64,000 nt of DNA from Patescibacteria group bacterium (GTDB taxonomy: Bacteria > Patescibacteriota > Dojkabacteria > GCA-002793355), in NCBI GenBank assembly GCA_016860985.1, contig BOKM01000001.1, forward strand, positions 591,462 to 655,461. Reading direction: 5' to 3'. Within the stretch, counting starts at the first letter, position 1, and the number at the start of each line of letters is the position of its first letter. The notes below the pieces were generated by a model. The model saw nothing but the letters and a program-made list of their open reading frames with translations, did not search any database and had not been told where the DNA came from. The translations under genes were made by a program, and so were the position numbers. Of the stretch, positions 24,404 to 49,370 are shown piece after piece.

Positions 24404-24405
24404 GG

Positions 24406-25314: not shown

Positions 25315-25330
25315 TGCTAGCTCAATGAAA

Positions 25331-26836: not shown

Positions 26837-26839
26837 GAT

Positions 26840-27484
26840 TTATTGGTTTTTTAATATAGAACCAAAACGAAGTAACTCTGTAAACCTAACTGCAGACCAA
26901 AAGGCAACAATTGCGTCAACAATCAATACGAATATGAGTACCTCGTGATGTGCCGCGAGAAAGGTATTCCAGGTACTCCAGGTAATAAGAAGGCCAGCAA
27001 ATAGTGAAAGTACAACGGTGGTCGCAAGTCTGCGAATAAACTCTTGACTGTCTTTTTTGAATAGTAACGTTGCCAGCTCGTCGATTGTCGTTGCAATAAG
27101 GAAAACACCAATACCAAAAAAGTGGTCACTTACTATTGAGGCATAGGAAGTCTGCGCAATTACGGCCATTGCGATAAGAGAAAAGAAGGTCGCGCCCAAG
27201 TACATAACTGCGACACGTGCGTAGTAGTTAATTTTAAATCTCCTGATGAGATATCTTGTTGCGACAGCAGTACCGATAGTTAGGAGTGAAAAGAGGAGCC
27301 AAAGAACAACTGCAAACAGTGCTGAGTCGAGTAACTGGTAAAAGAAGTAATACGCTAGAGATAGCGCAATGACGGGATAATTCTTCCATGTTTTAAAACC
27401 AATCATATAACGAGTAATAGCAACAAGAGATACGATTATCGGAATATTGAGGAGGATGGCCGGGACGTCTGGTAAGAAAACCAT
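26840..27484 (-). CDS. multi-pass (about 7 TM) membrane protein, promoter-proximal gene of the ATP-grasp operon
   Basis: 214 aa and almost entirely hydrophobic helices. 3-nt gap to the RLAN/ATP-grasp gene. Resembles the 7TM partners of RimK-like ligases. Confidence 0.5.
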   Translation of the reverse strand: MVFLPDVPAILLNIPIIVSLVAITRYMIGFKTWKNYPVIALSLAYYFFYQLLDSALFAVVLWLLFSLLTIGTAVATRYLIRRFKINYYARVAVMYLGATFFSLIAMAVIAQTSYASIVSDHFFGIGVFLIATTIDELATLLFKKDSQEFIRRLATTVVLSLFAGLLITWSTWNTFLAAHHEVLIFVLIVDAIVAFWSAVRFTELLRFGSILKNQ

Positions 27485-27593: not shown

Positions 27594-28151
27594 ATGATTG
27601 AAGTAGAATCTAAAATTTTGAATATAGATTGTGAATTAGTGAGAACCAGACTCAAAAGTATTGGTGCGCAGTTTATTTCGGAGAAGTTATTTCATACATT
27701 GTTATTCCGATTGCCAAAAGATCTAAGCAAGGCGACATTGAGATTAAGAAAAGAGGGAGAAAGAGCAGTTCTAACCTTTAAGACGATTGTTAAAAGCCCA
27801 GACGATTCAGTGAAAGTGAGAAATGAAATGGAAACTGAAGTGGAAAATTTTGAGATAATGAAAGGAGTGCTGCTTTCTTTAGGATATCCGGTGTCGCAAG
27901 AGTTTGAAAAGATTCGTGAAGAGTACCGGTTGGATGACGCAGTTATTGTTATTGACCAATTTCAAGGAAGGTATGCAGTTATTCCTCCTCTTCTGGAAAT
28001 TGAAGCTATTGATGCCATCGAGGTGATTCGAATAGCTGAATTGTTGGGGTATGAAAAATCGCAGCTTTCAAGTGCTGGATTGCGTGATTTTGTTGTGCAG
28101 TACAATCTAGGTGAACTTGATAGCGATACTGACAAGAGTGGAGGTTCTTGA
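27594..28151 (+). CDS. CYTH-domain protein (CyaB/ThTPase-like triphosphate tunnel metalloenzyme)
   Basis: 'MIEVESKILNID' has the EXEXK motif at the N-terminus, with 'LRLRKEG..AVLTFK' and an acidic 'E.E.E' strand later; 185 aa. Confidence 0.7.
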   Translation: MIEVESKILNIDCELVRTRLKSIGAQFISEKLFHTLLFRLPKDLSKATLRLRKEGERAVLTFKTIVKSPDDSVKVRNEMETEVENFEIMKGVLLSLGYPVSQEFEKIREEYRLDDAVIVIDQFQGRYAVIPPLLEIEAIDAIEVIRIAELLGYEKSQLSSAGLRDFVVQYNLGELDSDTDKSGGS

Positions 28152-28157
28152 TATAAT
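28129..28157 (+). promoter_or_regulatory. sigma70-like promoter for tRNA-Arg (CTGACA-17-TATAAT)
   Basis: -35 CTGACA 28129-28134, 17-nt spacer, -10 TATAAT 28152-28157. tRNA 5' end 9 nt downstream. Confidence 0.4.
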
Positions 28158-28165
28158 TACGAAGT

Positions 28166-28238
28166 GCGCCTGTAGCTCAACGGATAGAGCAACAGACTTC
28201 TAATCTGTGGGTTGTGGGTTCGATTCCCGCCGGGCGCA
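28166..28238 (+). tRNA. tRNA-Arg (anticodon TCT)
   Basis: Cloverleaf: acceptor GCGCCTG/CGGGCGC, anticodon stem-loop CAGAC-TTCTAAT-CTGTG, T-arm GTGGG-TTCGATT-CCCGC, discriminator A. Confidence 0.85.
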
Positions 28239-28239
28239 G

Positions 28240-28276
28240 GTGAGTGACCACGCTGTTGCGTGGGCAGTCACCTGAG
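28240..28276 (+). terminator. long imperfect hairpin immediately 3' of tRNA-Arg
   Basis: 'AGGTGAGTGACCACGC TGTT GCGTGGGCAGTCACCT' forms an approximately 14-bp stem. No T-run follows, so it may be a processing or structural element rather than an intrinsic terminator. Confidence 0.3.
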
Positions 28277-28376
28277 TATTCGGATTCGACCTTTACTCAG
28301 TTATCTCAAATCTTCAGTGTGTGAAGGAATCGATTGCGTAGCAATATAGACGCCGCTTTATTGTGATGTAGGACAT

Positions 28377-28392
28377 ATTCCCGCCGGGCGCA
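28377..28392 (+). repeat. 16-nt direct repeat of the tRNA-Arg 3' end (ATTCCCGCCGGGCGCA), 138 nt downstream of the tRNA
   Basis: Exact copy of tRNA positions 28223-28238. The copy is flanked by the inverted repeat GGACATAT...ATATGTCC and followed by a T-run. Confidence 0.6.
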
Positions 28393-28683
28393 TTTTTATA
28401 TGTCCTCTAATCCAGTAAATCGTAAAATTTCCCGTTGTTGAATGGATGTGGTCGCGCGGTGTGTTTCCCAAGGGTTCTTTTGCTAGTTATCTAATGCGTA
28501 AATTGGAGTGGTTTTGAATTCGTTCTATTACCCAAACATGAAAAAAGTGAAAATGTAGAACAGGTGCACTGTGAAACACTCTGAGTTGTAAACAGAGGAG
28601 CTGTTTCACAATGCAGACGAAAGTGGCAAAAAGTACCGAATTATCCACTTGTTTTGTGTGTATAAGTCTTGTATATTTAATCA

Positions 28684-31600
28684 ATGAGAAACAGAAGCGG
28701 GCAGAGCCCCTCCGCTTTCCTTCGGGTAACGCTTTTTGCGTTGCTTTTGACGACTTTTTCATTCTTGGGGCAAGTTCGTGCAGCGACGACTGACACAATT
28801 TCTTTTCAAAGCAAGCTTACAAATACCGATGGTACAAACATTTCGAACGGTACGTACAACTTCCGTTTTCGAATGTACTCCGTGTCTTCCGGTGGCACTT
28901 CCCACTGGACTGAAGATAGATCGTTAGTCGTGAATGCTGGCGTTGTGTCTGTTGATTTGGGGGCGGTTCAAAGTTTTCCATCGGATCTATTTGATTATTC
29001 TGATCTCTATCTTCAGGTCTGTTTCGATGCAAATGGAACTGACTTGGATAGCTCTGATGCGAATTGTGGAAGCGGTTCACATCGCTATGAAGAGGTATTT
29101 TCGACAAGAAAAGCAATTACTGCTGTCCCTGTGGCATTTAGAGCAAAATACCTAACGGATGGTGCAGGTAATGCCTACGGGTTTAACGATTTCTTTATCC
29201 AAGGAGGCAATGCCTTTGGGGCGGTTGGGGTTATCGGAACTACTGATAATTATGGTCTTGAATTTAGAACTAACAATTCAGTAGTAGGCTCTTTTGATAC
29301 TTCTGGTACCTTTGAAATGGCAGGGCTAGCAAAAATAGGTGCGGTTGCCATCGATGATGCGCCGTCGAACACTTATGGTCCAGCGCTCTGGGGCGGCACT
29401 TTTAACAATGGATTAACAATTAAACGGGACCTTGTAGACCTTTCAATGCAGGTAGTAACAGGGAGTCTTACGGAATTAAATATTAACCCATCTGCAACTC
29501 CGATAGCAGATTCAGTTGGTTCACTAACGTTAGTGTATAGCAATGCTGCAAATTCTGAGAATCTATCAAGCCTGTATGGTGTTTATGGAGAGACGATACA
29601 TAGTAGTTCAGGTACGGCAGATTATTTATACGGTGGTCATTTTTCAGCTTCGAGGGATACTAGTACCGGAGGGGCAGTGGGTACAACTTATGGAATTAGC
29701 GCATATGCCGCTGATGGCGATAATATAATTGCTGGAAGTTTTGTAGCTAATAGACAATTGGGCGCAACAAATGTAGACACCAAAGGCGTTAGCTCATTCG
29801 TTTCCAATCAATATGCACAGTCTTCTGGTGTCGACAATACATATGGGTCCTATGTGAGTGTATCAAGACAAAATGCAACAGGTGGCACTGTAAATACGTA
29901 TGGTATTTATGCCGAACTTGGTGGCGATAATGCTGGGTCTGGGGTGCATACAACCTACGGTTTATATCTCGAAAATTTTGGAGGTGGCGATACAAACTAT
30001 GCGATTTATACAAATGGTACAACGCCTAGCAGATTCGGTGGAAGTATTACGACCGAAGGTATTCTTGGCATCAAAGAAACCGGTACGACACCTACGTACT
30101 ACACATACTTTCAAGGTGGGGACCAAGCAGGTGATATTACCTATACTTTGCCTACGGCTTCGAGTAACGGGGTACTTACCAACACGGGTGGCGTACTGAG
30201 CTGGGCAGCAGGTGGCGGTGGAATTAGCCAAGTTGGTTCAATGACTAGTTCTGTGGTTTTTGGTGATGTAACTGCAGACGATGACTGGCTTGGTTTGGGT
30301 GCTTCGGCGGGGAGGATTGAATTTGATGATTTAACCATCGATGAAATAAACATTCTTGGTGCGAGAGTTGGTATTGGAACTTCGACGCCTACTGACGCAC
30401 TGTCGTTAGTTGTGAATGAAACAGATAATGCGATTTGGGGTGGCGGTGTATCTGTATTTTATGATTATGCTCCAGCAACAGCAGGCACTGGGTATCCAAT
30501 TGGAATAATAAATTCAGTGAGTGTGGGCGTCGGGAATGCCAATGGAATGAGCGGTTTAATTGGTATACAAAACGAAGTCTCAAATGACGGAAGTGGAGAT
30601 ATAGATAATCTCATTGGTATGATCACTTCTGCTTACAATTCAGGGTCGAATCAGGTCACTTCGATTATGGGTGCATCAATCTCTGCTGGGGCTTCTGGGG
30701 GCGGTGCAACAAATCTAATTGGATTGAATGTTTCTGCTAATGACACTATTCCAGGCGTTACTAACCTGTATGGAATCTATGTCGGAGCATTCAACGATGG
30801 AATCGGAGATACACAAAATCGTTACACTCTCTATCTTGCAGAAGATGAAGATGGAAGCACGGCAGTGAATGATTTTGGCCTGTATTCAGCTGACCCAAAT
30901 GTAGTGAACTACTTTGCAGGAAATGTTGGTATTGGAACTGTTTCACCAACAAGTTTTGTACTGCAGGTGGCTGGAGACATTGGCCCTGACGCTGACGATA
31001 CATACGATTTAGGATCTTCTTCTTTGAGATTTAGGGATTTGTATTTAGGTGGAAACACATTGCATATTGGAAGCTCCTTAACAGACGAAGGTACCATATC
31101 TTATAACACCACGACCAACGTTTTAGGAATCTCTACAGACTCAACGACTAATGGTGATATTGCGTTCTTTACTAATCAACTCTTCTTGGATAAGTCGAGT
31201 GGCAATGTCGGAATTGGAACAACTGCACCACTTTCAACACTAAATATTGCAGATAACACTGGCCCTGTAACGCTTACCTCAACGTTATTGGGTGATCCAG
31301 GAACAACAGGGGCGCTAGGAAGGTATGCATTTAGAGCGGAAACAACGGAAGCCCCAAGTTGGACAACAGTTTACAACACACCAGAGGTAACGGTATCAGC
31401 CTTTGCGTATGATTATGAGAATGGAGTTATGTACGCGGCTGCAGGTGGCGGAAATGGTGTAATTTATCGTTGTGTAGTATCTTCTGGTTGTGATGTTTCA
31501 GGCGATTGGACGGAAGTGTACGATGCAGCTAGTTTGTGGGATCAACCTGCCATTGTGTTTGATGCTGCAACAAATACGGTCTTCTCTACATCTGATGGAG

Positions 31601-34600
31601 TGGTGTCGCGTTGTGATACGAGTACTGGTTGTGACGCACCTGGTGATTGGGCAAATGTATTCACGAGTGGTGATGATGATGTACTTTCACTCGGAGTTGA
31701 TACCGCTAATAGTGTTCTTTACGTTGGTTCAGCATGGACACAAGGAATAATTTACCGATGTGATATTGCAGCAACTAGTTGTGATGCTTCTGGCGACTTT
31801 ACTACAAGTTTTGACACTCCAGACGATGGTCTTACCTCAATGGTCTATGATGCTACAAATGGCACGATGTACGCGGGCAGTGAATGGGGAGGTGAAGTGT
31901 ATCGTTGTGACACAGCAACGGATTGTGACGCCGGAACTGACTGGACTGTATCAGGAGATCTTCCTGGTTCCGGAAATCTAATTCACGCACTTGCAATCGA
32001 TACCGCAAACGATATTTTATATGCATCGTCAGATGATGTCATTTATCGGTGTCCTTTGAGCAGTGGTTGTGATGCTCTTACCGACTGGTCAATCTCGTAT
32101 GATACGAATCTCTCTGGTGTCTACAGTTTAGGGTACGATACTGTACACGAAAGAATGTTTGCAGGAACAGGAAACACCGGAATTGTATATCAATGTGCGA
32201 CTTCTACCGGTTGTGACAGCTCGAGCGATTGGTCAGTATCTTATGATTCGACACAAACCTCGATATTAAGTATTGGTGTAGTGAATGGAGTTGTGTATGC
32301 GGGTAGTGGAAATGGCGGTTTTATCTATCGATTTGATGATAATACTTCTCCGACCTACGCAAACTACGCAGCGATAGAAGCTTATGCAGTTGATACAGTT
32401 ACAGGCTCAGAAGATGGCCGACTATCGTTTAAAACAATGCTTGGTGGAACTGAATATGAGTCACTTCGAGTTTCCGGTAATGCTTCTACGTTTTATAGCT
32501 CACTTTCTTTGGGTACTTCTTCGGCTGGATATGATGCGACATTTAATGCTTCTGGTGTAAATCGTTCTCTTTTCTGGGAATCCTCGACGGGGAGATTGAT
32601 AGGTAGAGATGGTACAAATCCGATGGTTATGTTTACTACTCAACCAAGCACCGCGGATGGTGTCTTTACCTCCTTTAACGCTACCGGCACTTCGAAGGTG
32701 GTCCAGTTCGGTAATGCTGCAATGAATATTGGTGGTGGAGGTAAGTTCCGACTGTTTAATCAGCCAACGTGGGCAGTTGGAGAAGATCCAGGAGCAATGA
32801 GTGCGGTAGAAACACTCGAAATGAACTCGGCAACAGGTTCAATTGGCATTAATCCAAGTGGAAACGCTTCTGCACCTACAACTGAGAATATCCGGATAAC
32901 AACTAATGTAAGTGTGGCAGCAGATATTACCGGACTGTATATTACCGGAAGTAATCCAGGAGGAAGTTGGACCGCAGGGTATTTTGGGGGAAATGTAGGA
33001 ATAGGTGCGACTGGTGTTCCAAATGCCACGCTAAATGTTAGGGGAAGTGCAAATCAAGTGCAGTTTGCAGTAAGAAATAATGGTACGCAAAGTGCAAATA
33101 TGGTTGAGTTTCAGAATTCTTCTGGTACTGCTTTAACTTCCATAAACTCAAGTGGTCATCTTGATTTGTCGGGCAATGCAATTCCAAATGCATGGAATAC
33201 GGTATTAAAATTTAATAATGACACATTAGGGGCTACTGAACTCGCTGGTGGTTTTACGAATGGTTTTATCCGTTCCTCTACAGGCAGATTGCTTGTTAAC
33301 TATATTACTGATAATGCAGCAAACTCACTTTTTGGCGGTGGAGTTAATGGTGATGCCTATAGGCGTTTCACGATGGGTGGTGACGGAAAATGGAGTGTTG
33401 GAGATGGAACAGGGCTTCAAGATACGAACTTATACCGATCTGCTGCAAATCAGTGGACTACAGATGATTCTTTTAGAATAAAGGGAACGCTTGGAGTGAT
33501 GGAAGGCACTGGGGCTACATACTACACTATTTTCCAGGGTGGAGACCAAGCTGGAGATATTACCTATACTTTGCCAACCGCCTCGTCAAATGGCTTCTTG
33601 CAAAATACAGGCGGGTTACTCAGTTGGGCAGCCGGAAGTAGTAGCGTAACTGTCGGTTCAATGACAGGGGGAACCTTGTTTGCCGATGCCACCGCAGATG
33701 ATGATTGGCTAGGTTTAGGGGCAAGTGCAGGTCGCATAGCCTTTGATGATCAAACAACTGACTACGTGAACATTTTAGATGCGAATGTCGGTATCGGAAT
33801 TGCAGCACCAACAGAACGACTTCATATAGCAAACAATGGGGACACGTACTTAAATATCAACGCAACTAATGGATCTGGACAGATAAGCGGCCTTAAACTG
33901 CAACGGGGAACGTGGTTAACCGATACGTATACTGATTACAGTCTCTACGTTTCTAACGGTGATTTTATGATTGACACGCTTGATGACAACGTGACAACGA
34001 ACGTTTTTCATATAGACGGAGCAACCGGCTATACCGGTATTGGAATGTCAACGACAGCAAATCGATTGGCTGTAAAAGGTGGGCAATCAGTAGCCACTAT
34101 TGGTGTGAGTAATTTGATTACGGCAGACGGCACCTTTGCTACTTCGAGTGGGTGGACAGCAGGTTCAGGGTGGAGTATTGGTTCCGGAGTCGTGACTCAC
34201 ACAACAGGTAACACTGCGACATTGTCCGGAACGACTGGTGCAACCGACGATGATCTCGTTTATCAGGTTAATTTTACGGTTGCGGTGACAACTGCGGGTG
34301 ATGGGTTTACGGTATCGCTTGGCGGGAACGATGCGGGAACAACAATAACTACGGCTGGTGCAAAGGTATTGTATATTCGCCCAACTGATTTAACTGGTAC
34401 CCTCGTCTTTACCCCAGGACCTGCTGGAACTTTTGTTGGAACGATTGATGACGTAACAGTATATGCAATAAGTCAATCTAATGCTGATGTTTTGGTCCAA
34501 AACAGCAACGGAACTACTAATCCTCTCGAGTTACGCGCAGGAGGTAGTGGAGCGCTAAGCACATTTATCGGTACTAACGCAGGTCGTTACAATACGACAA

Positions 34601-37600
34601 CAGGTGGTGGTGGAAATGGTTTGTACAACACCTTTGTTGGTTATAACTCCGGAAGGTTTAACGCAACAGGAAATAGTAATACAACCCTTGGGCACTACGC
34701 TTTGGCACGAAATACAACTGGTTACTCTAATACTGCAATCGGTACGTGGGCAATGGAATATAACATCTCTGGCTATCGAAATAGCGCTTTTGGAGATGGC
34801 GCTTTAGGTCTGAACACCACGGGCTACGAAAATAGTGGTTTTGGCATGTACTCGCTTGCAGAAAATACAACAGGTAATCGTAATGTTGCACTTGGTTACG
34901 CCGCACTTGAAGAAAACACAACGGGACATAGCAACATTTCAGTGGGTAGTCGTTCAGGTCGTTATTTGGCAGATGGGTCTACTCCCAATACGAATTCAAT
35001 CGAGTCAATTTTCATTGGAACTGATACAGAAGCACTCGCGGCCAGTGGAACAAACGAGATTGTGATTGGCTATGCAGCAGAAGGGTTAGGAAGTAACTCT
35101 GTGGTTCTTGGAAATGATTCCATTATAAAAACACTTTTGCGAGGTAATGTGGGTATCGGTGCAAGTTCAAGCAACCAATTGTATGTTTACGATGGGCAAT
35201 GGGCCGATACCGTCAACCCACAAGTATTGATTTATGGAGTAGATAATGAAACCCAAGTAAAGGCACTTTCGATTGTAGATGAAAACGATAATGAGTACTT
35301 TTATGTACGTTCGACGACCGATGATCGTGGAGAAACATACTTCTTAGGAGATGTTGGAATAGGTGTCGAATCTCCTGCCTATGCACTCTCGGTTCAGGCG
35401 GCAGCCGGACAAGATGCAATAAACTGGAGAAACCCGACATACGAATTAGGTCGGTTAGGATATTCGACGGATAATGACAGTGGTTGGTTAGGTCTTTATC
35501 GTAATGGTTCAAGTGAGGTTGAAATTAAAGCAAATGGTGATTCTTATTTTAATGGTGGGGATGTTGGTATTGGTTTAGATTATGCAAATACTCGATTGCA
35601 CGTGAAAGGATCTAGTTCCCTCGCAAGTGTAGGGGTGACCAATTTAGTCACCGCAGACGGTACTTTTGCGACATCCTCAGGATGGACAGAGGGAACAGGT
35701 TGGACAATTGGTTCTGGTGTTGCAACGCACGCAACAGGGAATACAGGAATACTTTCAGGTACAACTACAGCAACAAATACATCAACCGTTTATCAAGTAA
35801 ACTTTACAACAACAGTTACAACAGCAGGTGATGGATTAACAGTATCCCTCGGTGGGCAAGACGCAGGTGAAACAATTACAACTGCTGGTGCAAAAACACT
35901 ATATATCGTTCCGTCAGCAGGCACAGGAACACTTGAGTTTAAACTCGGAGCACTTGGTACGTTTGTCGGTACTATTGATGATGTAACAGTGTATGCGTTA
36001 ACGGGTTCCACAGCAGATGCAACATTCGAAAGTAGCAATGGTACGAGCAGCCCGATTGAGTTACGAGCAGGAAGAAGCTCAAGCAACAATACCTTTATTG
36101 GAACGAATGCAGGTAGCTTTAGTACAATAAGCGGTGGGGGAACTTACAACACCTTTATTGGTTATGATTCTGGGCGATACACTACAACAGCTAGTAGAAA
36201 TACTGCACTTGGCACTTGGTCCTTTGCCCAAAACACAACTGGTTATCGAAGCACCGCAATTGGATATTCTGCGTTGAGTGAAAATACAACTGGTTACAGA
36301 AACACTGCACTTGGTTCGAACGCCTTAGAACTAAATACAACAGGGTATGATAACGCAGCCGTTGGAACGTACGCGCTTAATGTGAACACAACGGGTTACG
36401 AAAATGCTTCTTTGGGCATCTACTCACTTGAGGCAAATACAACAGGAAACCGAAATGTTGCAATTGGTTTTGCTGCATTGGAGAATAACACCACAGGGTA
36501 TCGCAATACCGCAATCGGTAGCCGTTCGGGGCGCTACCTTGCCGATGGGGTGACGTCAAATACAAACTCAATATCATCCATTTTCATTGGTTCGGATACA
36601 GAGGCACTTGCAGCAAGTGGCACAAATGAAATTGTGATTGGTTACGGAGCAGAAGGGTTAGGAAGTAACTCGGTAGTACTCGGTAACGACTCCATAACAA
36701 AAACATTACTGCAAGGTAACGTAGGAATTGGTGCGAGTTCAAACAATCAATTATATGTGTACGACTCACAATGGGCAGATATTACGAATCCACAAGTATT
36801 GATTTATGGAGTAGACAACGAAACACAGGTTAAGGCACTTTCGATTGTCGATGAAAATGATAATGAATATTTCTACGTAAGGTCTTCACCCGATGATAAA
36901 GGCGAAACTTATTTTAATGGTGACGTTGGAATTGGAGTAGAATCTCCTGCCTACAAACTAGCGGTTGGTGGAACGCTCGGTATTCTTGAAGGTGGGAGTA
37001 CACCAAGCTTTTATACAATCTTCCAAGGTGGTGATCAGTCGGCAAATCTTACCTACACGTTGCCAACGACTTCTACAAACGGTGTATTGACCAATACTGC
37101 AGGCGTTTTGAGTTGGGTTGCCGGTGGTGGTGGCGGTATTGGGCAGGTTGGTTCGATGACGGGCACTCCGGCTTTTGGCGATGCAACCGCAGACGATGAT
37201 TGGTTAGGTTTAGGTGCGAGTGCGGGAAGAATAGCGTTTGATGACCAAGCAATAGACTACGTCAATATTCTTGATGCGAATGTTGGAATTGGATACGCTA
37301 CGCCAACTGCGAGATTAGATATTCAAGGTACTGTGACCGAAGCTTCGCTCGGAGCTGAAATGATTACTGCAACTGCAGACCGTGATTTCTCTTCTTGGAC
37401 TGGAAATTGGTCGGGCACTGATTGGGCACCAAGTGGTGACGGAAGAGCAAGGCACTTAATTTCAGTTGGCTTTTCGCATCCATTTTCTTTAAGTAATGCT
37501 GCGTTGTCTGCGGCACCAGCTTCCGGGAATGTTTATAAAATTACATTTACGGTAGAAACTTCTACCGTGGGCTCTCTCCTTGTTAGTATCGGGGGTGCAA

Positions 37601-40600
37601 ACTCGGGTGTTTTAGTTGGAAAACAATTGAATACTGAAACTCATACAGTAGTCATCACTGCAACAGGCACAGGTGCACTAACATTTACACCTAACACAGG
37701 TGGATGGGAAGGTTACCTGGATGATATCTCTGTGGTTCAGGTTACACCTACCAATGCTGTAGAAATATTAAGAAATGCAGATGGAACAATTGGGTCAGAA
37801 TTACGTGCCGGTGGTTCAGCTCTATATAATACTTTTGTAGGTAACTCAAGTGGCCAAGCCAATACAACAGGGTACAACAATGCAGCTTTAGGACGTCAGG
37901 CTTTAGGGCACAATATTGCCGGATATCGGAATAGTGCAGTCGGGTACAACGCCCTCTATGAGAATACGATTGGTCATGATAACGTTGCATTTGGTACATT
38001 CGCTTCTCGTTGGAATAACATTGGAAATTACAATACTTCGGTCGGTGTATATGCACTTGGAAGTTCAACAAGCGGCTCTTATAACACAAGTATTGGTTAT
38101 CAATCACTTTACAATGTAACAAGTGGCAATAATAACACCGCGTTTGGTAGTTCTGTGGGGTATTCTTTGAGTACTGGAGCGAATAATGTATTGTTTGGCT
38201 ATCAGGCAGGAGACAATCTTACCTCTGGCTCCAACAATATCGTTATCGGTTACAATGTTGATGCGCCATCTGCTACGGCTTCGAACCAACTCAATATTGG
38301 CAACTTTATTTTTGGAACAGGAATCGATGGTACGGGTACAACAGTATCGAACGGCAGGATTGGTATTGGGACAACTGCGCCACAAACTACTTTTGACGTA
38401 GCTGGTTCCGGAGCATTTAGCGCGCTTGGTGTGAAGTATATTACAGGCTCTATTGATCCAACTGCTTCAACTACCGTTACCGGTACAGGCACGCTCTTCT
38501 TAAGTGAAGTTGATCCAGGAGACAGAATCGCACTAGATGGCACAGCTACTATTACAGGTTCCATTGACCCTACTGCGTCAACTGCAGTAACTGGAGTTGG
38601 AACGCTCTTCCTTACTGAGCTTAAGGTTGGTGATCAAATTACCGTTAATTCCGAGACTCGAACTGTTATCGCAATTGCCTCGAACACTGCTTTGACCGTT
38701 GGTGTTGCTTTTACTGACACAGCAAACGACACATCAATAGTGCGAACGTCAACCGAAATAAGAACGGTTGTTTCTATTGCTTCCAACACTTCCTTAACAG
38801 TCGACAGGGCATACCTCGATAATAGTGCAGATAGCCAAATTACAGTGTATCGAGATACCTTTGATGTGACAGGTGCAGCCCTATTTAAAGGTGGTGCTTT
38901 GTTTACGGGACTTGGAACTCCAGGTGCGCCAACAGTCACTCCTCAAGGCACTACTGGCGCTGCAACATGGACATATAAAATTTCAGCGGTCAATGCAACA
39001 GGCAATGAAACAGTGCTGTCTGCAGATGGTTCAACCACCTCAGGTAATGCCACTTTGTCAGGGACAAATTTCAATAGAATTACATGGTCCGAAACTCCAG
39101 GTGCCGCTGCGTATAGAATTTATCGCGTCGCAACGGGTACTTCTCCAAACACCTCGGGGTACATTGGAACAGTTGATGCACACAGTACATTGCAGTTTGA
39201 TGACACGGGTATTGGTATCATGGGTGGTTACTCAGGGAGTGTATTCGATGAAACAAGTAACGTAGGAATTGGCACACTTAAAACACCACCACGAGACACA
39301 CTCACGGTAGACGGAAGGATTAATCAGACATGGCACTATATGTTTGAGGATTTCTTTGGAGGCAGAGCAAACCAGACGGCAAACGCAGTAATCAACGCAG
39401 GCAATGCAATGAGTTTTGCAAGAATCGGAACATCGGGTTGTACAGCTTCTTATCCGAGTGTCGCAAACGGAGTATATAGAATGACATCTGGTGCTACGGC
39501 GGCCTTAGGTTGTTTGCTTTCTCAGGCTGGTACTGCAGGGTTACCAAATATTAAGCAAGTTGATGTCTCACTCGCGCCAGTGCTTGAAGTGGTCCTTAAC
39601 CCAGGAGCGACTTCGGCAAAAACAATGATTGTTGGTTTTTCTAACCAGACAACCGCAACGGTTGCCGAACCTACTGCAGGCTTGTATTTCTATGCCAGCA
39701 CGGCAGGTACTCCTTCTGATCAATGGATAGCGGTTGCCCGTAACGCATCTGTTTCAACCACACAGGCCACAGGAGTCACAACAAACACAAATACGTATCA
39801 AGTTCTGAGGATTGAAGCATCAGCTACTCATGCACGCTACTATATTAACGATGTACTTGTTGCAGATTTGAGAACAAATATTCCTGCGTCAGGTGCAACC
39901 CTCGAATTCGTAGTCGGTCACGCGACAACGGCAGCAGCAGCTAAAACGGTGGACATTGATTCAATTGAGTTCTGGCAAGATGATCCAGTGGTTTCAGGTA
40001 TGCCTGGACAGTTGCCCGCAGGCTTTGATGGTTCAAACTTACTTCAGAATCACATGCTTTACAGTGATACAACCTACGCGAAAGGTGCAAGCGAAGAAAC
40101 GATTCCAGAAGGCTACGTCGTCTCGTTTACTGATAGCACAGAATTCGATGATAACGGAAAGAATAGATTAGTGTACAACATTGAAAAATCAAAAGCTGGA
40201 GATTCGACCGTTCTTGGTATTGGTTCAGGACTTATTGATCCAAATGCACCTTTTGAAATTGGATTAAATCCATATGCTGTTGCACTCTACGGTCCAACCT
40301 ATGCGTGGGTAGAAGAGGGTGGAGAAACAAATATTACCCTTGGACAAGAGCTAAGACTTTCGAGTAAATCAGAAGGTGTTCTGTCGGTTGAAGGTGGACA
40401 GATAATTGCACGTTCACTAGAAGTCGTAGACTGGAATGTCATTGATGGAGTCGAAGGGCAATCAAAGCGAAAACTCATTAAGGTCTTTGCAATGAATGGT
40501 GGCTCACAAAATGCTGCTCTGGTTGCAGGTGGGGTAAGTAACTACTTTACGGCAGTTGATGATTCCTCGATCCAGACACCATACAGACTTATTGCCAATT

Positions 40601-41091
40601 CATTAGTTGCAACAACAGCAGAAGTAAATGTACTGAAAGCCAGAACACTCAATGTAAACGATAACTTCCTTGTAGACGACGAAGGGAATGTTTCTACAAG
40701 CGGAGAACTTTTTGCCGGAGCGATAGAAACGCCAGTAATAAAAGGTGTCGCCGGTGGGTTGAATATAAATATTGGAGAGCAAGAAACCTTTACCGTTTCG
40801 GTTGGTGATACAAAGGCAATTGAGGCAAGCGTGAAAGGAGTTAAAGTCAATAACTTATTAGTAAGCGAGCAGCAGGCAGGCAAAGTAACTCTCCCAGCTG
40901 GTCAAACAACCACAACCGTACAAAGCGAATTGGTTGCTCCTGAATCCGTAGTTGTTGTGACTCCAAATATTCCAGTGGTAACAGCTGTCAAGACAAATAA
41001 TGGCTATTTTGTTATTTCGATAGCAACTGCGAGTTCGCAGGATATCGAACTCGCATGGTATGTCGTAAATGTGGATAGAGGAGAAGATTAA
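28684..41091 (+). CDS. giant (4135-aa) secreted mosaic surface protein
   Basis: Single uninterrupted ORF with signal peptide 'MRNRSGQSPSAFLRVTLFALLLTTFSFLGQVRAATTD'. Internal module repeats, YadA-head-like/tail-fibre-like repeats, FN3-like and ConA/LamG-like C-terminal regions; Thr/Gly/Ser-rich. Confidence 0.8.
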   Translation: MRNRSGQSPSAFLRVTLFALLLTTFSFLGQVRAATTDTISFQSKLTNTDGTNISNGTYNFRFRMYSVSSGGTSHWTEDRSLVVNAGVVSVDLGAVQSFPSDLFDYSDLYLQVCFDANGTDLDSSDANCGSGSHRYEEVFSTRKAITAVPVAFRAKYLTDGAGNAYGFNDFFIQGGNAFGAVGVIGTTDNYGLEFRTNNSVVGSFDTSGTFEMAGLAKIGAVAIDDAPSNTYGPALWGGTFNNGLTIKRDLVDLSMQVVTGSLTELNINPSATPIADSVGSLTLVYSNAANSENLSSLYGVYGETIHSSSGTADYLYGGHFSASRDTSTGGAVGTTYGISAYAADGDNIIAGSFVANRQLGATNVDTKGVSSFVSNQYAQSSGVDNTYGSYVSVSRQNATGGTVNTYGIYAELGGDNAGSGVHTTYGLYLENFGGGDTNYAIYTNGTTPSRFGGSITTEGILGIKETGTTPTYYTYFQGGDQAGDITYTLPTASSNGVLTNTGGVLSWAAGGGGISQVGSMTSSVVFGDVTADDDWLGLGASAGRIEFDDLTIDEINILGARVGIGTSTPTDALSLVVNETDNAIWGGGVSVFYDYAPATAGTGYPIGIINSVSVGVGNANGMSGLIGIQNEVSNDGSGDIDNLIGMITSAYNSGSNQVTSIMGASISAGASGGGATNLIGLNVSANDTIPGVTNLYGIYVGAFNDGIGDTQNRYTLYLAEDEDGSTAVNDFGLYSADPNVVNYFAGNVGIGTVSPTSFVLQVAGDIGPDADDTYDLGSSSLRFRDLYLGGNTLHIGSSLTDEGTISYNTTTNVLGISTDSTTNGDIAFFTNQLFLDKSSGNVGIGTTAPLSTLNIADNTGPVTLTSTLLGDPGTTGALGRYAFRAETTEAPSWTTVYNTPEVTVSAFAYDYENGVMYAAAGGGNGVIYRCVVSSGCDVSGDWTEVYDAASLWDQPAIVFDAATNTVFSTSDGVVSRCDTSTGCDAPGDWANVFTSGDDDVLSLGVDTANSVLYVGSAWTQGIIYRCDIAATSCDASGDFTTSFDTPDDGLTSMVYDATNGTMYAGSEWGGEVYRCDTATDCDAGTDWTVSGDLPGSGNLIHALAIDTANDILYASSDDVIYRCPLSSGCDALTDWSISYDTNLSGVYSLGYDTVHERMFAGTGNTGIVYQCATSTGCDSSSDWSVSYDSTQTSILSIGVVNGVVYAGSGNGGFIYRFDDNTSPTYANYAAIEAYAVDTVTGSEDGRLSFKTMLGGTEYESLRVSGNASTFYSSLSLGTSSAGYDATFNASGVNRSLFWESSTGRLIGRDGTNPMVMFTTQPSTADGVFTSFNATGTSKVVQFGNAAMNIGGGGKFRLFNQPTWAVGEDPGAMSAVETLEMNSATGSIGINPSGNASAPTTENIRITTNVSVAADITGLYITGSNPGGSWTAGYFGGNVGIGATGVPNATLNVRGSANQVQFAVRNNGTQSANMVEFQNSSGTALTSINSSGHLDLSGNAIPNAWNTVLKFNNDTLGATELAGGFTNGFIRSSTGRLLVNYITDNAANSLFGGGVNGDAYRRFTMGGDGKWSVGDGTGLQDTNLYRSAANQWTTDDSFRIKGTLGVMEGTGATYYTIFQGGDQAGDITYTLPTASSNGFLQNTGGLLSWAAGSSSVTVGSMTGGTLFADATADDDWLGLGASAGRIAFDDQTTDYVNILDANVGIGIAAPTERLHIANNGDTYLNINATNGSGQISGLKLQRGTWLTDTYTDYSLYVSNGDFMIDTLDDNVTTNVFHIDGATGYTGIGMSTTANRLAVKGGQSVATIGVSNLITADGTFATSSGWTAGSGWSIGSGVVTHTTGNTATLSGTTGATDDDLVYQVNFTVAVTTAGDGFTVSLGGNDAGTTITTAGAKVLYIRPTDLTGTLVFTPGPAGTFVGTIDDVTVYAISQSNADVLVQNSNGTTNPLELRAGGSGALSTFIGTNAGRYNTTTGGGGNGLYNTFVGYNSGRFNATGNSNTTLGHYALARNTTGYSNTAIGTWAMEYNISGYRNSAFGDGALGLNTTGYENSGFGMYSLAENTTGNRNVALGYAALEENTTGHSNISVGSRSGRYLADGSTPNTNSIESIFIGTDTEALAASGTNEIVIGYAAEGLGSNSVVLGNDSIIKTLLRGNVGIGASSSNQLYVYDGQWADTVNPQVLIYGVDNETQVKALSIVDENDNEYFYVRSTTDDRGETYFLGDVGIGVESPAYALSVQAAAGQDAINWRNPTYELGRLGYSTDNDSGWLGLYRNGSSEVEIKANGDSYFNGGDVGIGLDYANTRLHVKGSSSLASVGVTNLVTADGTFATSSGWTEGTGWTIGSGVATHATGNTGILSGTTTATNTSTVYQVNFTTTVTTAGDGLTVSLGGQDAGETITTAGAKTLYIVPSAGTGTLEFKLGALGTFVGTIDDVTVYALTGSTADATFESSNGTSSPIELRAGRSSSNNTFIGTNAGSFSTISGGGTYNTFIGYDSGRYTTTASRNTALGTWSFAQNTTGYRSTAIGYSALSENTTGYRNTALGSNALELNTTGYDNAAVGTYALNVNTTGYENASLGIYSLEANTTGNRNVAIGFAALENNTTGYRNTAIGSRSGRYLADGVTSNTNSISSIFIGSDTEALAASGTNEIVIGYGAEGLGSNSVVLGNDSITKTLLQGNVGIGASSNNQLYVYDSQWADITNPQVLIYGVDNETQVKALSIVDENDNEYFYVRSSPDDKGETYFNGDVGIGVESPAYKLAVGGTLGILEGGSTPSFYTIFQGGDQSANLTYTLPTTSTNGVLTNTAGVLSWVAGGGGGIGQVGSMTGTPAFGDATADDDWLGLGASAGRIAFDDQAIDYVNILDANVGIGYATPTARLDIQGTVTEASLGAEMITATADRDFSSWTGNWSGTDWAPSGDGRARHLISVGFSHPFSLSNAALSAAPASGNVYKITFTVETSTVGSLLVSIGGANSGVLVGKQLNTETHTVVITATGTGALTFTPNTGGWEGYLDDISVVQVTPTNAVEILRNADGTIGSELRAGGSALYNTFVGNSSGQANTTGYNNAALGRQALGHNIAGYRNSAVGYNALYENTIGHDNVAFGTFASRWNNIGNYNTSVGVYALGSSTSGSYNTSIGYQSLYNVTSGNNNTAFGSSVGYSLSTGANNVLFGYQAGDNLTSGSNNIVIGYNVDAPSATASNQLNIGNFIFGTGIDGTGTTVSNGRIGIGTTAPQTTFDVAGSGAFSALGVKYITGSIDPTASTTVTGTGTLFLSEVDPGDRIALDGTATITGSIDPTASTAVTGVGTLFLTELKVGDQITVNSETRTVIAIASNTALTVGVAFTDTANDTSIVRTSTEIRTVVSIASNTSLTVDRAYLDNSADSQITVYRDTFDVTGAALFKGGALFTGLGTPGAPTVTPQGTTGAATWTYKISAVNATGNETVLSADGSTTSGNATLSGTNFNRITWSETPGAAAYRIYRVATGTSPNTSGYIGTVDAHSTLQFDDTGIGIMGGYSGSVFDETSNVGIGTLKTPPRDTLTVDGRINQTWHYMFEDFFGGRANQTANAVINAGNAMSFARIGTSGCTASYPSVANGVYRMTSGATAALGCLLSQAGTAGLPNIKQVDVSLAPVLEVVLNPGATSAKTMIVGFSNQTTATVAEPTAGLYFYASTAGTPSDQWIAVARNASVSTTQATGVTTNTNTYQVLRIEASATHARYYINDVLVADLRTNIPASGATLEFVVGHATTAAAAKTVDIDSIEFWQDDPVVSGMPGQLPAGFDGSNLLQNHMLYSDTTYAKGASEETIPEGYVVSFTDSTEFDDNGKNRLVYNIEKSKAGDSTVLGIGSGLIDPNAPFEIGLNPYAVALYGPTYAWVEEGGETNITLGQELRLSSKSEGVLSVEGGQIIARSLEVVDWNVIDGVEGQSKRKLIKVFAMNGGSQNAALVAGGVSNYFTAVDDSSIQTPYRLIANSLVATTAEVNVLKARTLNVNDNFLVDDEGNVSTSGELFAGAIETPVIKGVAGGLNINIGEQETFTVSVGDTKAIEASVKGVKVNNLLVSEQQAGKVTLPAGQTTTTVQSELVAPESVVVVTPNIPVVTAVKTNNGYFVISIATASSQDIELAWYVVNVDRGED
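34084..36960 (+). repeat. intragenic tandem duplication (two diverged copies of about 1.45 kb each) within the giant gene
   Basis: Encoded blocks 'TADGTFATSSGWTAGSGWSIGSGVVTHTTGNTATLSGTTGATDDDLVYQVNFTVAVTTAGDGFTVSLGG ... VESPAYAL' and 'TADGTFATSSGWTEGTGWTIGSGVATHATGNTGILSGTTTATNTSTVYQVNFTTTVTTAGDGLTVSLGG ... VESPAYKL' are collinear over about 480 aa, with about 80% DNA identity in long stretches. Confidence 0.8.
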
Positions 41092-41107
41092 TATAAGAAA
41101 GGTAAGG

Positions 41108-43516
41108 ATGAACAAGTTATTAAAAGGTATGAGGGCGATGTCGTTAAGCTTCTTGGTGTTAATCGCTTCTTTTGGTGTTGTTCATGCTGCTAATTATGTA
41201 GAAACTACCTCCTATGACCTTGGGTATCCAGGGATTGATCTTGCCGAAGATTCGAGTGGAAACATCTTTATTGTAGATACAAATAATCAGAAAATTAAAA
41301 AATACGACCAAAACGGCAACTACTTATTACAATTTGGTGCCGAAGGAACAGGTAACGGGGAGTTCTCCTATGTTTCTAGTATGGCTATTGACTCTGCAGG
41401 TAATGTGTTTGTTGCAGACGAAGTTCGCGTTCAGAAGTTTTCAAATAATGGAGCCTTTCTCTCCGTATTTGCTAATACAGGTGAGGTAAAAGGAATGGCT
41501 ATTGATGCTGCTGACAATGTATATGTTTCGCTGCCTGTTGATTCGCAGATTGCAAAATACTCCTCTGCCGGTGCATTGCTTGGGTCTTTTGGAACTTTAG
41601 GTGACCAACCAGAAGAGTTTGATTCTCCAGGGAGCCTCACTATTGACGCAGCAGGGAATATTTATGTTGCAGATGAAGCCAATAAACGAATGCAGGTGTT
41701 CTCCTCGGGCTTTGAATACTTGTATGAGGTGACAGGTTTTGGCCCTGCAGAATCATGGTACATTATGCCTTTTGATATTGATGTAAGCCCATCTGGTGAA
41801 ACTTTTGTTGCTGATACCTACAATAATATTGTAAAGGTTTACGATAACACTGGATTGTTTTTGTCCAGTATTGATGTGCCGGGAAATCCGTACGGTATTA
41901 TTGCCAAAAGTAATGTGATTCTTGTAAGCGTTGCCGGAGATACAACGTTACGCAGGTTTACGTTGGATGATTTAGCGCCAACTATAAATGTAACACCGTT
42001 TGATAGTCATACGGTTGCGACAGGTCGACCCACTTTTGAAGGTTTGGCTGTCGATACCATGAGTCCGGTTACTTCAGTTGATTTCAAGGTAGAGGGTGGT
42101 GCGTATACAGGTGATTGGGCCAATTGTTCCCCTTCTGATGATTCGTACGATTCATTATCTGAAGCATTTACATGTATACCAGCCGACAGTATCCCCGTTG
42201 GGAGCTACACACTAACAGTACGGGCGACTGATAATGTTGCAAACACCAACCGTCAAGAAGACGATAATTTATTTACTTATACGTTTTCAATTATTGATGA
42301 TGCTCCTGCTAGTATAGATAACGAAGCGTTTCCGGAGGACAAAACGTTTGATACCACACCATTATTAACGGGAACAGTTGTTGATCTTGTTTCAGGAATT
42401 GTGAGTGTTGAGTACGAGTTAACCTCTGAAGCATCGGGAGTGTGGCACGCCTGTACCTCTGAAGATGGTGCATTTGATGAGCTTGCAGAAGTATATCAAT
42501 GTCAATTAGTTGATGCCTTAAGTGCAGGTATACATATAGTAACGATTCGTTCGACTGATGCTTCAGGTTTTACTAATGAACCATATCCTGATGGAAATGC
42601 GTGGGAATATACCTTTGAAGTAAGAGCGCTGACGACCCCAACTGTGGCAACAGGTACAGCGAGTTCAATTACTTCCAGCTCTGCAGTGATTGGCGGGACT
42701 GTTTCAAGCAATGGAGGGAGTGTTGTAACTGAGCGGGGTATTGTGTATTCAGCAACAGTAAGTACCCCTACGGTTTCTGATATAAAAGTAGCAAGTGGTA
42801 TGGGGGTAGGAGTATACACAGCGAGCCTAAGTAGTCTTGCTGCATCAACTCATTACTACGCGCGTTCATATGCAATAAACGCACAAGGAACATCGTACGG
42901 CTCCGTTCTCGAATTCACTACGCTTGCAGCTGCACCTACAACACCTGCCTCGCTACAGAATGTGTATGTCACGTTTGCAAAGTTTAAATATAATAAATAT
43001 GTATCTCCTTCTGCTCTTCGCACGGGGGATACGGCGTATATAAAGAATTTCAATACGAGTAAGTTGAAATTGTTACAGGTTTTTCTTTATGACTATGCAA
43101 AAAAAGGGAATCAAGGGTTTACCAAGTCAAAGGTGACAACATCGTCAATGTTTCTTAGAACAACTAGCCTTCTACCGACGGGTAAGCGCTACGCGTATGT
43201 CTTTAAATTCCAAGATAAAGCAACAGGGATCATCGCAACCAAATATTTTGTTGTATATACAACAAAAGTATGGCAGGGAAAGTCGGTTTTAGGAGTTACA
43301 ACGACAACGGAAACTGGAGTGCAGAATAAGCCGGGGCCTGACCCAAGTGAAGTTGCGCCGAATTATGTTGCCAATCCACTTCCACAGTATAGTGGAGATT
43401 GGAATAGAATATGGTCTAACGTTGTTGATTCAGGCGTGCTACCTTATATTGCTGTTGCTATTTGTATTGGAGGAGTTGTGATTGTCTTTCTAAGAAATAT
43501 AAAGCATGAATCCTGA
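41108..43516 (+). CDS. NHL-repeat (six-bladed beta-propeller) surface protein with Ig-like domains and C-terminal TM anchor
   Basis: Start at ATG 41108 with RBS-like AAGAAAGGTAAGG upstream; signal peptide 'MNKLLKGMRAMSLSFLVLIASFGVVHA'. Repeated 'GN.F.VAD..N.R.Q.F' NHL blades, e.g. 'SGNIFIVDTNNQKIKKYDQNG' and 'AGNVFVADEVRVQKFSNNG'. C-terminal 'VLPYIAVAICIGGVVIVFLRNIKHES'. Confidence 0.75.
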   Translation: MNKLLKGMRAMSLSFLVLIASFGVVHAANYVETTSYDLGYPGIDLAEDSSGNIFIVDTNNQKIKKYDQNGNYLLQFGAEGTGNGEFSYVSSMAIDSAGNVFVADEVRVQKFSNNGAFLSVFANTGEVKGMAIDAADNVYVSLPVDSQIAKYSSAGALLGSFGTLGDQPEEFDSPGSLTIDAAGNIYVADEANKRMQVFSSGFEYLYEVTGFGPAESWYIMPFDIDVSPSGETFVADTYNNIVKVYDNTGLFLSSIDVPGNPYGIIAKSNVILVSVAGDTTLRRFTLDDLAPTINVTPFDSHTVATGRPTFEGLAVDTMSPVTSVDFKVEGGAYTGDWANCSPSDDSYDSLSEAFTCIPADSIPVGSYTLTVRATDNVANTNRQEDDNLFTYTFSIIDDAPASIDNEAFPEDKTFDTTPLLTGTVVDLVSGIVSVEYELTSEASGVWHACTSEDGAFDELAEVYQCQLVDALSAGIHIVTIRSTDASGFTNEPYPDGNAWEYTFEVRALTTPTVATGTASSITSSSAVIGGTVSSNGGSVVTERGIVYSATVSTPTVSDIKVASGMGVGVYTASLSSLAASTHYYARSYAINAQGTSYGSVLEFTTLAAAPTTPASLQNVYVTFAKFKYNKYVSPSALRTGDTAYIKNFNTSKLKLLQVFLYDYAKKGNQGFTKSKVTTSSMFLRTTSLLPTGKRYAYVFKFQDKATGIIATKYFVVYTTKVWQGKSVLGVTTTTETGVQNKPGPDPSEVAPNYVANPLPQYSGDWNRIWSNVVDSGVLPYIAVAICIGGVVIVFLRNIKHES

Positions 43517-43817
43517 GGAATCATTTAGTAAAGCCGACGCATTATGTGGGGATCAAGATTTTACCTTCCAATATGAGCCAGATAGAACTGACCTGCTTGT
43601 TGCTGCAACCTTACCTGCTGTAAATGCAAAAGCGAGAAAAGGTGACGTCAAATTAGATACTGATGCACTCATTTTGCGTAAAGCGCAGTGCCGTTTGTGT
43701 AAATTGAATGCTGCAAACCAGCGACATGGTGGAAATGTATCTTGCCTGCCCCGACTGCAATCGACCCTAGATATGGTCACTTTCAAGGTTATTCCTCAGA
43801 TCAAAGAGAAGAGATAG
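43506..43817 (+). CDS. small hypothetical ORF (doubtful)
   Basis: 103-aa ORF overlapping the NHL gene stop. No motifs, and an antisense ORF covers the same span. Confidence 0.2.
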   Translation: MNPEESFSKADALCGDQDFTFQYEPDRTDLLVAATLPAVNAKARKGDVKLDTDALILRKAQCRLCKLNAANQRHGGNVSCLPRLQSTLDMVTFKVIPQIKEKR

Positions 43818-44146: not shown

Positions 44147-45698
<1,552 letters not shown>

Positions 45699-45897: not shown

Positions 45898-46239
45898 AGA
45901 ATCTTTAAAAGGTTCTGAGTCTGAGGAAATGGAAAAATTGCATTATCATAATTAGTCAATGTCGGCTTCCAATATAAACGGAGCCAAAAAGCATTGCATA
46001 CACCTCGGTTCTTTGATAAAATCTGCTTACGCTCGTAAAGAAAGCAGAAGAGAGTGAAGGAATTATGGAGTTTTTCGCAAGGAAAATTCCCAGTTCTTTT
46101 ACTGAAAGGAGGTTCGCCTCTGATAAAGGATGTGCGTTGGTTTTCTTCGGAATTCTGACCTCTCTCATTTGCGCAAGCAAATGAGGGAAAACACATTTGA
46201 ACATTGACAATTGAATTAGGTTTTGTGACCGTACAAAAA

Positions 46240-49370
<3,131 letters not shown>

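Follow-up and report, generated by a model that had tools for sequence, protein, structure and literature searches.

To our knowledge, little is known of how bacteria of the Candidate Phyla Radiation (CPR) recognize their hosts beyond type IV pili, and 'giant surface proteins' are invoked generically in this context. Such proteins were proposed as host-attachment factors of CPR episymbionts (Vampirococcus lugosii, Absconditicoccaceae; PMC8080830, PMC13059738), and in Southlakia epibionticum lectin/FN3 adhesins were shown genetically to be essential for epibiotic growth (PMC10633639). In a Gracilibacterium, a surface-protein gene varies sharply within a near-identical population (PMC6851277). 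Fibres of a better characterized kind are the 'mosaic adhesive trimer' (MAT) proteins of Bdellovibrio bacteriovorus (Caulton et al. 2024, PMC10769870). They consist of a signal peptide, a conserved beta-rich N-terminal domain of about 130 aa and a trimeric body of beta-helical type, the capping loops of which follow the consensus V-G-G/N-pi-x-x-P-x-x-x-L; their tips are variable, and a terminal S74 chaperone may be present or absent. The MAT protein Bd2133 measures 142 Å for 370 residues, and 21 MAT paralogues are encoded in the single genome of B. bacteriovorus HD100 (PMC10769870). Here we describe a giant gene (28684..41091, + strand) encoding a protein of 4135 aa, which lies in a 64,000-nt stretch of contig BOKM01000001.1 from a Patescibacteria bacterium (Dojkabacteria), in the following called the window.

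The gene consists of a single open reading frame (ORF) with an ATG start and no internal stop codon. It occupies 19.4% of the window, in agreement with the coordinates and the share of about 19% given in a sequence-only reading of this DNA, and approximately 1.2% of the 1.05-Mb, CPR-sized genome. With 4135 open codons, a chance origin of the frame is ruled out. Gly, Thr, Ser, Ala and Asn are abundant in the protein. All of its 16 cysteines are closely paired (113/128, six C-x5/6-C pairs at aa 930-1177, and 3586/3610), which is consistent with an extracellular location. The sequence-only reading had regarded the architecture as lying outside any named adhesin family. This has to be revised, as profile and comparative evidence point to a class of phage-tail-fibre-like or Bdellovibrio MAT-like fibres. 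The best explanation of the sequence matches is that the giant protein belongs to a class of cellular proteins composed of phage tail-fibre and tail-spike modules, of which the Bdellovibrio MAT is the characterized example. It is a CPR-borne, four-fold enlarged relative of the phage-fibre-like MAT adhesins with a conserved frame and a variable centre. With moderate confidence we consider it a Sec-exported, probably trimeric mosaic surface fibre of about 100 nm (a length scaled from Bd2133), which would serve host recognition and be diversified by cassette exchange. The candidate role in host attachment or fibre formation proposed before is plausible in our judgement.

The protein starts with a predicted Sec signal peptide (aa 1-33, ...QVRA/ATTDT; 28684..28782, +), already recognized in the sequence-only reading. 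The only hydrophobic 19-mer of the whole protein is located at aa ~10-30 and is followed by VRA/ATTDT. Inspection of the relatives showed that A33 is invariant and the A/ATTDT junction conserved across 11 of them; cleavage would be expected at this site. A C-terminal hydrophobic segment was not seen, which agrees with the earlier claim that there is no C-terminal membrane anchor. Directly behind the signal peptide follows a conserved beta-rich domain (aa ~34-155) with a QGGNAFG..LGTTD linker motif extending to aa ~200 (28783..29283, +), the same order as in the MATs. The N-terminal domains of 11 out of 11 family members matched NCBIfam NF053851 (Bdello_MAT_N; best E 3.4e-10), the sole family matched by more than one member. 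In 15 out of 15 relatives possessing the full domain, it lies within the first ~250 residues, and the cysteine pair C113/C128 is nearly invariant. AlphaFold2 (AF2) modelled a beta core at aa 38-115 with a predicted local distance difference test score (pLDDT) of 67-83. The N-terminal domain of the giant protein is likely to be a remote homologue of the MAT N-terminal domain, with a score below the curated cut-off.

The centre of the protein contains three copies of a module of about 470 aa (module B). Copy 1 (aa 1719-2245; 33838..35418, +) comprises a jelly-roll-like subdomain, about six 17-aa units and a knob. Copy 2 (aa 2246-2760; 35419..36963, +) is 73% identical to copy 1 at protein and 68% at DNA level, and copy 3 (aa 2881-3215; 37324..38328, +) has diverged to ~37% identity. 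Each copy carries about 6-8 units of the repeat NTxxGxxALxxNTTGYx. Searched against the PHROGs, this 17-aa repeat part matched the tail spike family phrog_4636 (E 5e-24 for copy 2), and copy 1 matched phrog_4636 as well as the virion structural families phrog_6002 and phrog_23837 (E 1e-12 to 1e-15). In tblastn comparisons, module B showed 31-40% identity to proteins annotated as tail spikes or fibres in phages of Flavobacterium, Pelagibacter, cyanobacteria and E. coli. At the sequence level, module B is shown by these matches to be homologous to phage tail spike/fibre families. A further link to phages is provided by the Gly-rich periodic region II and the adjoining tail-fibre-like linker (aa 579-888; 30418..31347, +), which contain a YDLGSSSLRFRDLYL motif and two GNVGIGT..P motifs, are common among the relatives and match phrog_5906 at aa ~815-869 (E 1.5e-8). 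Altogether about 14 G(N/D)VGIGxxxPxxxL motifs, similar to the capping-loop consensus of the MATs, are found at the module borders. Like the MATs, the giant protein has a long mosaic body with phage-fibre-like segments and recurring VG..P...L loops.

Exhaustive HMMER searches with aa 1-1200 detected 4555 relatives at E <= 0.001, many of them giant proteins with sizes up to 5727 aa, including 108 at E <= 1e-30. Word-indexed searches are misleading for this low-complexity family (aa 1-600 gave 4 matches, aa 3501-4135 gave none and a C-terminal profile gave 1), and the near-orphan appearance of the protein in them is due to this limit of the tool. Using phmmer, conservation of the C-terminus across the relatives was recovered. 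Saccharibacteria metagenome-assembled genomes (MAGs) encode giant proteins of 3268, 4248 and >5143 aa with the N-terminal domain, module B and several FN3-like copies in a different order.

The relatives also carry chaperones (proteins are in the following labelled P, compared strains or contigs L). Pfam Peptidase_S74 was matched by the orthologous allele P0012 (2.9e-10) and the relative P0046 (5e-13), and Pfam Peptidase_G2 IMC by the more distant relative P0099 (1.8e-8). The alleles P0006 and P0007 have a G2-type chaperone-like region (2e-21 and 5e-21, respectively). Among the 153 best relatives, S74-type regions occur in at least 19 and G2-type regions in 8. Peptidase_S74 is known from the endosialidase of phage K1F and the L-shaped fibre of phage T5, Peptidase_G2 from the phi29 appendage; both act on trimeric beta-helices and are hallmarks of trimeric beta-helical phage spikes. 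The occurrence of S74- and G2-type regions in sister alleles and relatives is the main, albeit indirect, argument that the giant protein is probably a homotrimer. Both the MATs and the family described here have members with or without S74 and contain adhesive domains such as lectin folds. The giant protein is linked to phage tail spikes and fibres by the kinship of module B and of the lectin domain, by the S74/G2-type regions of its relatives and sister alleles and by a modular shuffling.

Toward the C-terminus three further elements were recognized. The FN3-like and lectin-like regions that the sequence-only reading had placed at the end of the protein were both supported, but some 350 aa more follow the lectin domain. 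The FN3-like module is located at aa 3399-3515 (38878..39228, +). A profile of 15 copies matched the PDB entry 3mpc ('Fn3-like protein', E 5.7e-6) and, more weakly, other FN3 structures; the copy in the window itself was not supported by Pfam and was modelled with low confidence by AF2 (about 50). In 10 relatives, including the Saccharibacteria giants and Lentzea, 26 copies of this module were found. Outside the Patescibacteria it occurs with 35-40% identity in ORFs of ~3490 aa in Lentzea spp. (Actinomycetota; L011-L013). Actinomycetes are known hosts of Saccharibacteria.

The second element, a ConA-like lectin/LamG jelly-roll, extends over aa ~3540-3770 (39301..39993, +) and includes the pair C3586/C3610. 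An AF2 model of the C-terminal 741 aa, calculated from an 11-row alignment, had a mean pLDDT of 55 and three confident domains, the largest of them being the lectin core (aa 3594-3769, pLDDT 66-87). With this core, Foldseek detected 2a5z (5e-7), receptor-binding domains of botulinum neurotoxins and PL7 lyases in the PDB (probability 1.0), as well as many Caudovirales SO2946-like, LamG, ConA-like and tail-fibre proteins in BFVD (best template modelling score 0.70, root mean square deviation 3.6 Å). At sequence level Pfam gave a sub-threshold match to 3keto-disac_hyd alone (E 0.03). The predicted structure thus confirms a ConA-like/LamG jelly-roll at aa ~3594-3769.

The last element is the family-conserved C-terminal region (aa ~3790-4135; 40051..41088, +), modelled by AF2 with a beta-barrel (3864-3939) and a terminal beta-sandwich (4064-4129). 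These last ~300-350 aa, ending with WYVVNV, are common to the closer relatives and are present in the alleles P0005-P0008 and P0012 as well as in P0046, P0099 and P0045. Where relatives possess an S74 or G2 chaperone, it lies upstream of this region and is thus internal, whereas S74 is terminal in the MATs. In the chaperone-bearing alleles the conserved C-terminal module would be released along with the chaperone. If the locus is a host-range determinant, a reading taken up below, this module, which in some alleles lies behind an autoproteolytic chaperone, would represent an element of assembly or docking that has not been described before.

A comparison of related strains, also proposed in the sequence-only reading, revealed a hypervariable orthologous locus whose alleles differ by swapped cassettes. 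We detected six alleles of 2437-4135 aa at one syntenic locus: P0005 (3336 aa), P0006 (3550 aa), P0007 (2437 aa), P0008 (4043 aa, with Laminin_G_3), P0012 (2546 aa, with S74) and that of the window (4135 aa). Only one copy of the giant gene was found. In L014 and L016 the neighbouring ATP-grasp proteins are 98-99% identical to those of the window and the N-termini of the giant proteins 96-97%, and the centres are unrelated; the C-terminus of the L016 protein shows just 54% identity to that of the window. The variable cassette of the window spans 33003..38358 (5.4 kb, +), where L014 contains unrelated DNA of 3.0 kb, and on both sides of it the two alleles are collinear at 85-91% DNA identity. 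For P0007, collinearity with the window ends directly after the first copy of a shorter repeated module (module A, described below). At 90% identity the giant protein is a singleton, whereas its neighbours fall into clusters of 4-10 proteins.

The ratio of nonsynonymous to synonymous substitution rates (dN/dS) between the collinear parts of the window and L014 alleles was 0.035-0.13, compared to 0.01-0.11 for the flanking genes. The giant gene is therefore under strong purifying selection. Since the modules themselves are conserved in this way, diversity has arisen by exchange of cassettes and not by point mutation or decay; cassettes are exchanged at one locus among near-identical strains. 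The block 29314-32973 (aa 211-1430) exhibits a dS of ~1.04 against L014, 1.4-5 times as high as that of the genes on either side and of the ends of the giant gene itself (0.2-0.7); its dN/dS is 0.035. This suggests an import of the block by recombination from a more distant lineage. A competence gene ComEC/Rec2 is located 8 kb upstream of the giant gene (19054-20307, +), making natural transformation a plausible route of exchange.

From these results a mode of action may be proposed. The signal peptide would direct export of the giant protein, and the N-terminal beta-rich domain would dock the fibre onto the envelope of the producing cell. The centre of ~3500 residues may form a long, probably homotrimeric stalk, built of beta-helical 17-aa and Gly/Tyr segments with GNVGIGTxxPxxxL loops between them. 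On this stalk, globular binding domains (the Cys-stapled propeller-like domain, the jelly-rolls of module B, the FN3-like module and the ConA-like lectin) would be exposed and could attach to the glycans or proteins of a partner cell, the host. Specificity would change by recombination of whole central cassettes between strains, while the ends would be kept for export, docking and folding.

One could go further and regard the locus as the host-range determinant of a CPR episymbiont, i.e. a domesticated phage receptor-binding fibre of about 100 nm with an evolutionary kinship to the prey-recognition fibres of Bdellovibrio, whose cassettes are swapped between strains, plausibly by transformation. 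We consider this possible but rather doubtful. If it is true, cells with 98-99% identity in their housekeeping proteins would present distinct fibres, and their hosts could differ accordingly. Should the allele type track the host, the host range of uncultivated episymbionts could become predictable, and open to manipulation, through this locus. In that case phage-fibre-like modules would also be shown to serve surface recognition in two unrelated lineages living on other bacteria. The producers of MATs and of the giant protein both live by attaching to other bacteria.

Several observations weigh against the assignment to MAT-like trimeric fibres. The N-terminal domain of the window protein itself matched NF053851 with E 0.0016 and 18 bits only, compared to a curated cut-off of 60, and the alignment spans just positions ~4-80 of the 162 profile positions. 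A fold search with the model of this domain against viral structures gave no match at E <= 0.001. The strict capping-loop consensus of the MATs has no exact match in the giant protein; the local V-G-I-G-x-x-x-P-x-x-x-L contains an extra residue before Pro. Pfam detected no S74 or G2 chaperone in the window allele, and the SDxxxK motif is likewise absent from it. Both AF2 monomer models had low mean pLDDT values (55-57). In addition, the giant protein has ~4100 aa compared to ~1000 aa of the MATs; it varies in its centre and is conserved in its C-terminal ~300-350 aa, whereas MATs vary at their tips; and its producer is a CPR bacterium without outer membrane. Diversity also takes another form, namely alleles of one locus instead of the 21 paralogues of B. 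bacteriovorus HD100.

Compared by description with the giant surface proteins of other CPR bacteria, the window protein resembles them in its very large size, its location (secreted or membrane), its FN3 and ConA-like domains and a genome of ~1 Mb. Those proteins are characterized in the literature by generic adhesion domains only, and our literature search found no report linking CPR giants to the MAT/S74 fibre class, to a frame of conserved N- and C-termini or to a cassette-swapping locus. In Gracilibacterium, a short PTD-coding repeat is diversified synonymously; in the window gene, in contrast, domain cassettes of several kb are exchanged. With its conserved frame, its link to phage fibres and MATs and its single cassette-swapped locus, the family offers a concrete, testable candidate for a host-recognizing fibre.

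Alternatively, the protein might be a monomeric 'beads-on-a-string' adhesin, comparable to the multi-domain Ig/FN3/lectin adhesins known from other bacteria; it would have borrowed single phage-like domains without assembling into a trimer. Such monomeric adhesins typically contain FN3-like, ConA-like and propeller-like domains, which were here modelled as monomers with reasonable confidence, and the window allele has no intramolecular chaperone. We nevertheless regard this explanation as unlikely. It does not account for an N-terminal domain that appears to be homologous to that of the trimeric MATs, nor for the S74 or G2-type regions, i.e. chaperones of trimeric beta-helices, in alleles of the same locus, nor for the kinship of module B with tail spikes and fibres. 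Ig, cadherin and RTX repeats and signals for a type I secretion system (T1SS) or sortase were not found either.

Still less probable, though worth considering, is a structural envelope or S-layer-like coat without specific recognition, in which variability would result from evading phages or predators that use the coat as receptor. Hypervariability would equally be expected of a phage receptor under such pressure, the Gly/Thr/Ser/Asn-rich composition would suit a coat, and fibrous surfaces of CPR cells have been credited to giant proteins (PMC8080830). The lectin and FN3 domains and the tail-fibre homology argue for ligand binding instead; moreover, no SLH or S-layer family was matched, only a single gene copy was found, and nothing hints at lattice-forming domains.

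That the gene belongs to a chromosomal phage, prophage or tailocin and is not cellular appears very improbable. Among annotated proteins, those of phages are indeed closest to module B and to the lectin domain, and the 3' end of a tRNA-Arg is duplicated just upstream. The giant protein differs from phage fibres, however, in its Sec-type signal peptide, its far greater length and the missing chaperone of the window allele. The gene is chromosomal, virion or other phage genes are absent from its vicinity (its neighbours are the ATP-grasp, CYTH, tRNA and NHL genes and the rRNA operon), synteny of the locus extends over at least six strains, and the N-terminal domain and the FN3-lectin region were not found in IMG/VR contigs. 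An artefact of assembly or a decaying pseudogene, a danger named in the sequence-only reading and conceivable for an ORF of such length and repetitiveness in a genome of metagenome type, can be dismissed as practically negligible, as the internal repeats are just 68-71% identical at DNA level with a longest exact match of 26 nt, Tandem Repeats Finder detected no tandem arrays in the gene at DNA level, the identical 4135-aa protein is encoded on a 79.6-kb Logan contig from an independent assembly as well as on the NCBI contig (1,051,512 bp), and strong purifying selection acts on a frame of 4135 codons without stop.

Established adhesin classes were considered as well. Pfam and NCBIfam searches with 600-aa tiles and domain-sized pieces returned no match above threshold. 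A motif scan of the protein revealed no LPxT[GAN] (0), PEP-CTERM, GGxGxD (0) or SDxxxK motif, and among the Pfam tiles there was no Big, cadherin or SLH match. An RTX/T1SS giant adhesin of the LapA, SiiE or FrhA type was rejected in view of the missing GGxGxD motifs and Big/cadherin matches. A sortase-anchored LPXTG protein or SLH S-layer protein was rejected for lack of LPxT[GAN], of a C-terminal hydrophobic stretch and of an SLH match. For a trimeric autotransporter adhesin (YadA-like), no anchor, head or neck family was matched on any tile; neither Pfam nor NCBIfam gave a YadA-type barrel, Hep_Hag or HIM match. The 17-aa repeats recall YadA-like head repeats, a resemblance that we take to be superficial.

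The remaining anatomy, derived from self-comparison and alignments, comprises several different repeat systems. That such systems are present had been stated before, and modules A and B, the 17-aa units and six ~48-aa repeats were all recovered. The Gly/Tyr-rich periodic region I (aa 192-455; 29257..30048, +) is 39% identical to the relative P0001 and, judging from its periodicity alone, probably forms a beta-solenoid stalk. Module A (FQGGDQ..ITYTLPT..NGVL.N..G.LSW ... NVGIGT..P), with a length of ~120 aa, occurs in three copies of 66-72% identity at aa 454-578 (30043..30417, +), 1596-1718 (33469..33837, +) and 2759-2880 (36958..37323, +). It lies at allele junctions, is present in many relatives and has no relative in PDB, Pfam or PHROG. 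Six repeats of ~48 aa with one C-x5/6-C pair each (aa 889-1218; 31348..32337, +) represent a putative six-bladed, Cys-stapled beta-propeller-like domain. The repeat cysteines are invariant in 9 relatives; this region had no significant Pfam or PDB match, a lone weak match to Tachylectin being found in one relative. It is followed by a unique region (aa 1219-1595; 32338..33468, +), inside which, at nt 33002, the collinearity with L014 stops. Between module B copy 3 and the FN3-like module, short 'TGTGTLF..GD.I' repeat units (aa 3216-3398; 38329..38877, +) probably form small beta-barrels; their best Pfam match, to an OB-fold, was below threshold (E 7e-4). Sequence and profile searches of the PDB with the entire protein gave no meaningful match, nor did those with the N-terminal domain, module A, the Cys-repeats, module B or the C-terminal 741 aa.

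Immediately downstream, a gene encoding an 815-aa surface protein (41069..43516, +) starts within the giant gene with an overlap of 23 nt, and there is no terminator between the two. It contains a signal peptide, an NHL propeller (Pfam NHL, 3.7e-15), an Ig-like domain (Big_13) and a C-terminal transmembrane (TM) helix. In L014, L016 and L017 this gene likewise follows the giant gene, in L019 it is missing; its product could be a membrane-anchored partner of the giant fibre. A further ORF of 103 aa (43506..43817, +) is kept in related strains, accompanying the giant gene in L016 and L017 and being absent in L019. Thereafter the rRNA operon begins with the 16S gene at 44147, so that the order given in the sequence-only reading (giant gene, NHL-propeller protein, rRNA operon) proved correct.

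Upstream, genes for an acetyltransferase, three ATP-grasp/RimK-like ligases and a 214-aa protein are located on the opposite strand (22396-27484, -). The 214-aa protein has a 7TM_transglut match in one relative. This ATP-grasp cluster lies beside the giant locus in 6 out of 6 strains and resembles predicted peptide-modification neighbourhoods. A CYTH gene and the tRNA-Arg gene separate it from the giant gene. Directly upstream of the giant gene we detected no consensus promoter, the only strong one (28129-28157) preceding tRNA-Arg. The last 16 nt of this tRNA-Arg(tct) (ATTCCCGCCGGGCGCA, 28223-28238) are exactly repeated at 28377-28392, where 0 matches are expected by chance, and synteny with the related strains breaks right after the second ATTCCCGCCGGGCGCA copy. 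In L014, L016 and L017 a CorA gene of 304 aa separates the giant gene from the tRNA, compared to just ~200 bp in the window. This arrangement (28165-28600) resembles an att-type scar left next to the giant gene by a site-specific insertion or deletion.

Downstream of the 16S gene, the 23S rRNA match (46234-49375) comprises 3142 nt compared to 2925 nt of the model, the ~200 nt extra possibly indicating an insertion. The 5S rRNA gene (59579-59693) is located 10.2 kb downstream of the 23S gene with five ORFs between them. One of these encodes a second large surface-type protein of 1597 aa (52811-57604, +), which carries a TM/signal segment at its N-terminus, contains four long repeats rich in Gly (…GNGAGGG…GGGGRIA.YYT…) and gave no match in Pfam. 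It is annotated as 'beta strand repeat-containing protein' in a related MAG and is unrelated to the N- and C-terminal domains of the giant protein. Beside the 5S rRNA gene, a protein of 636 aa with a GH18 (chitinase-like) domain is encoded on the opposite strand (57601-59511, -).

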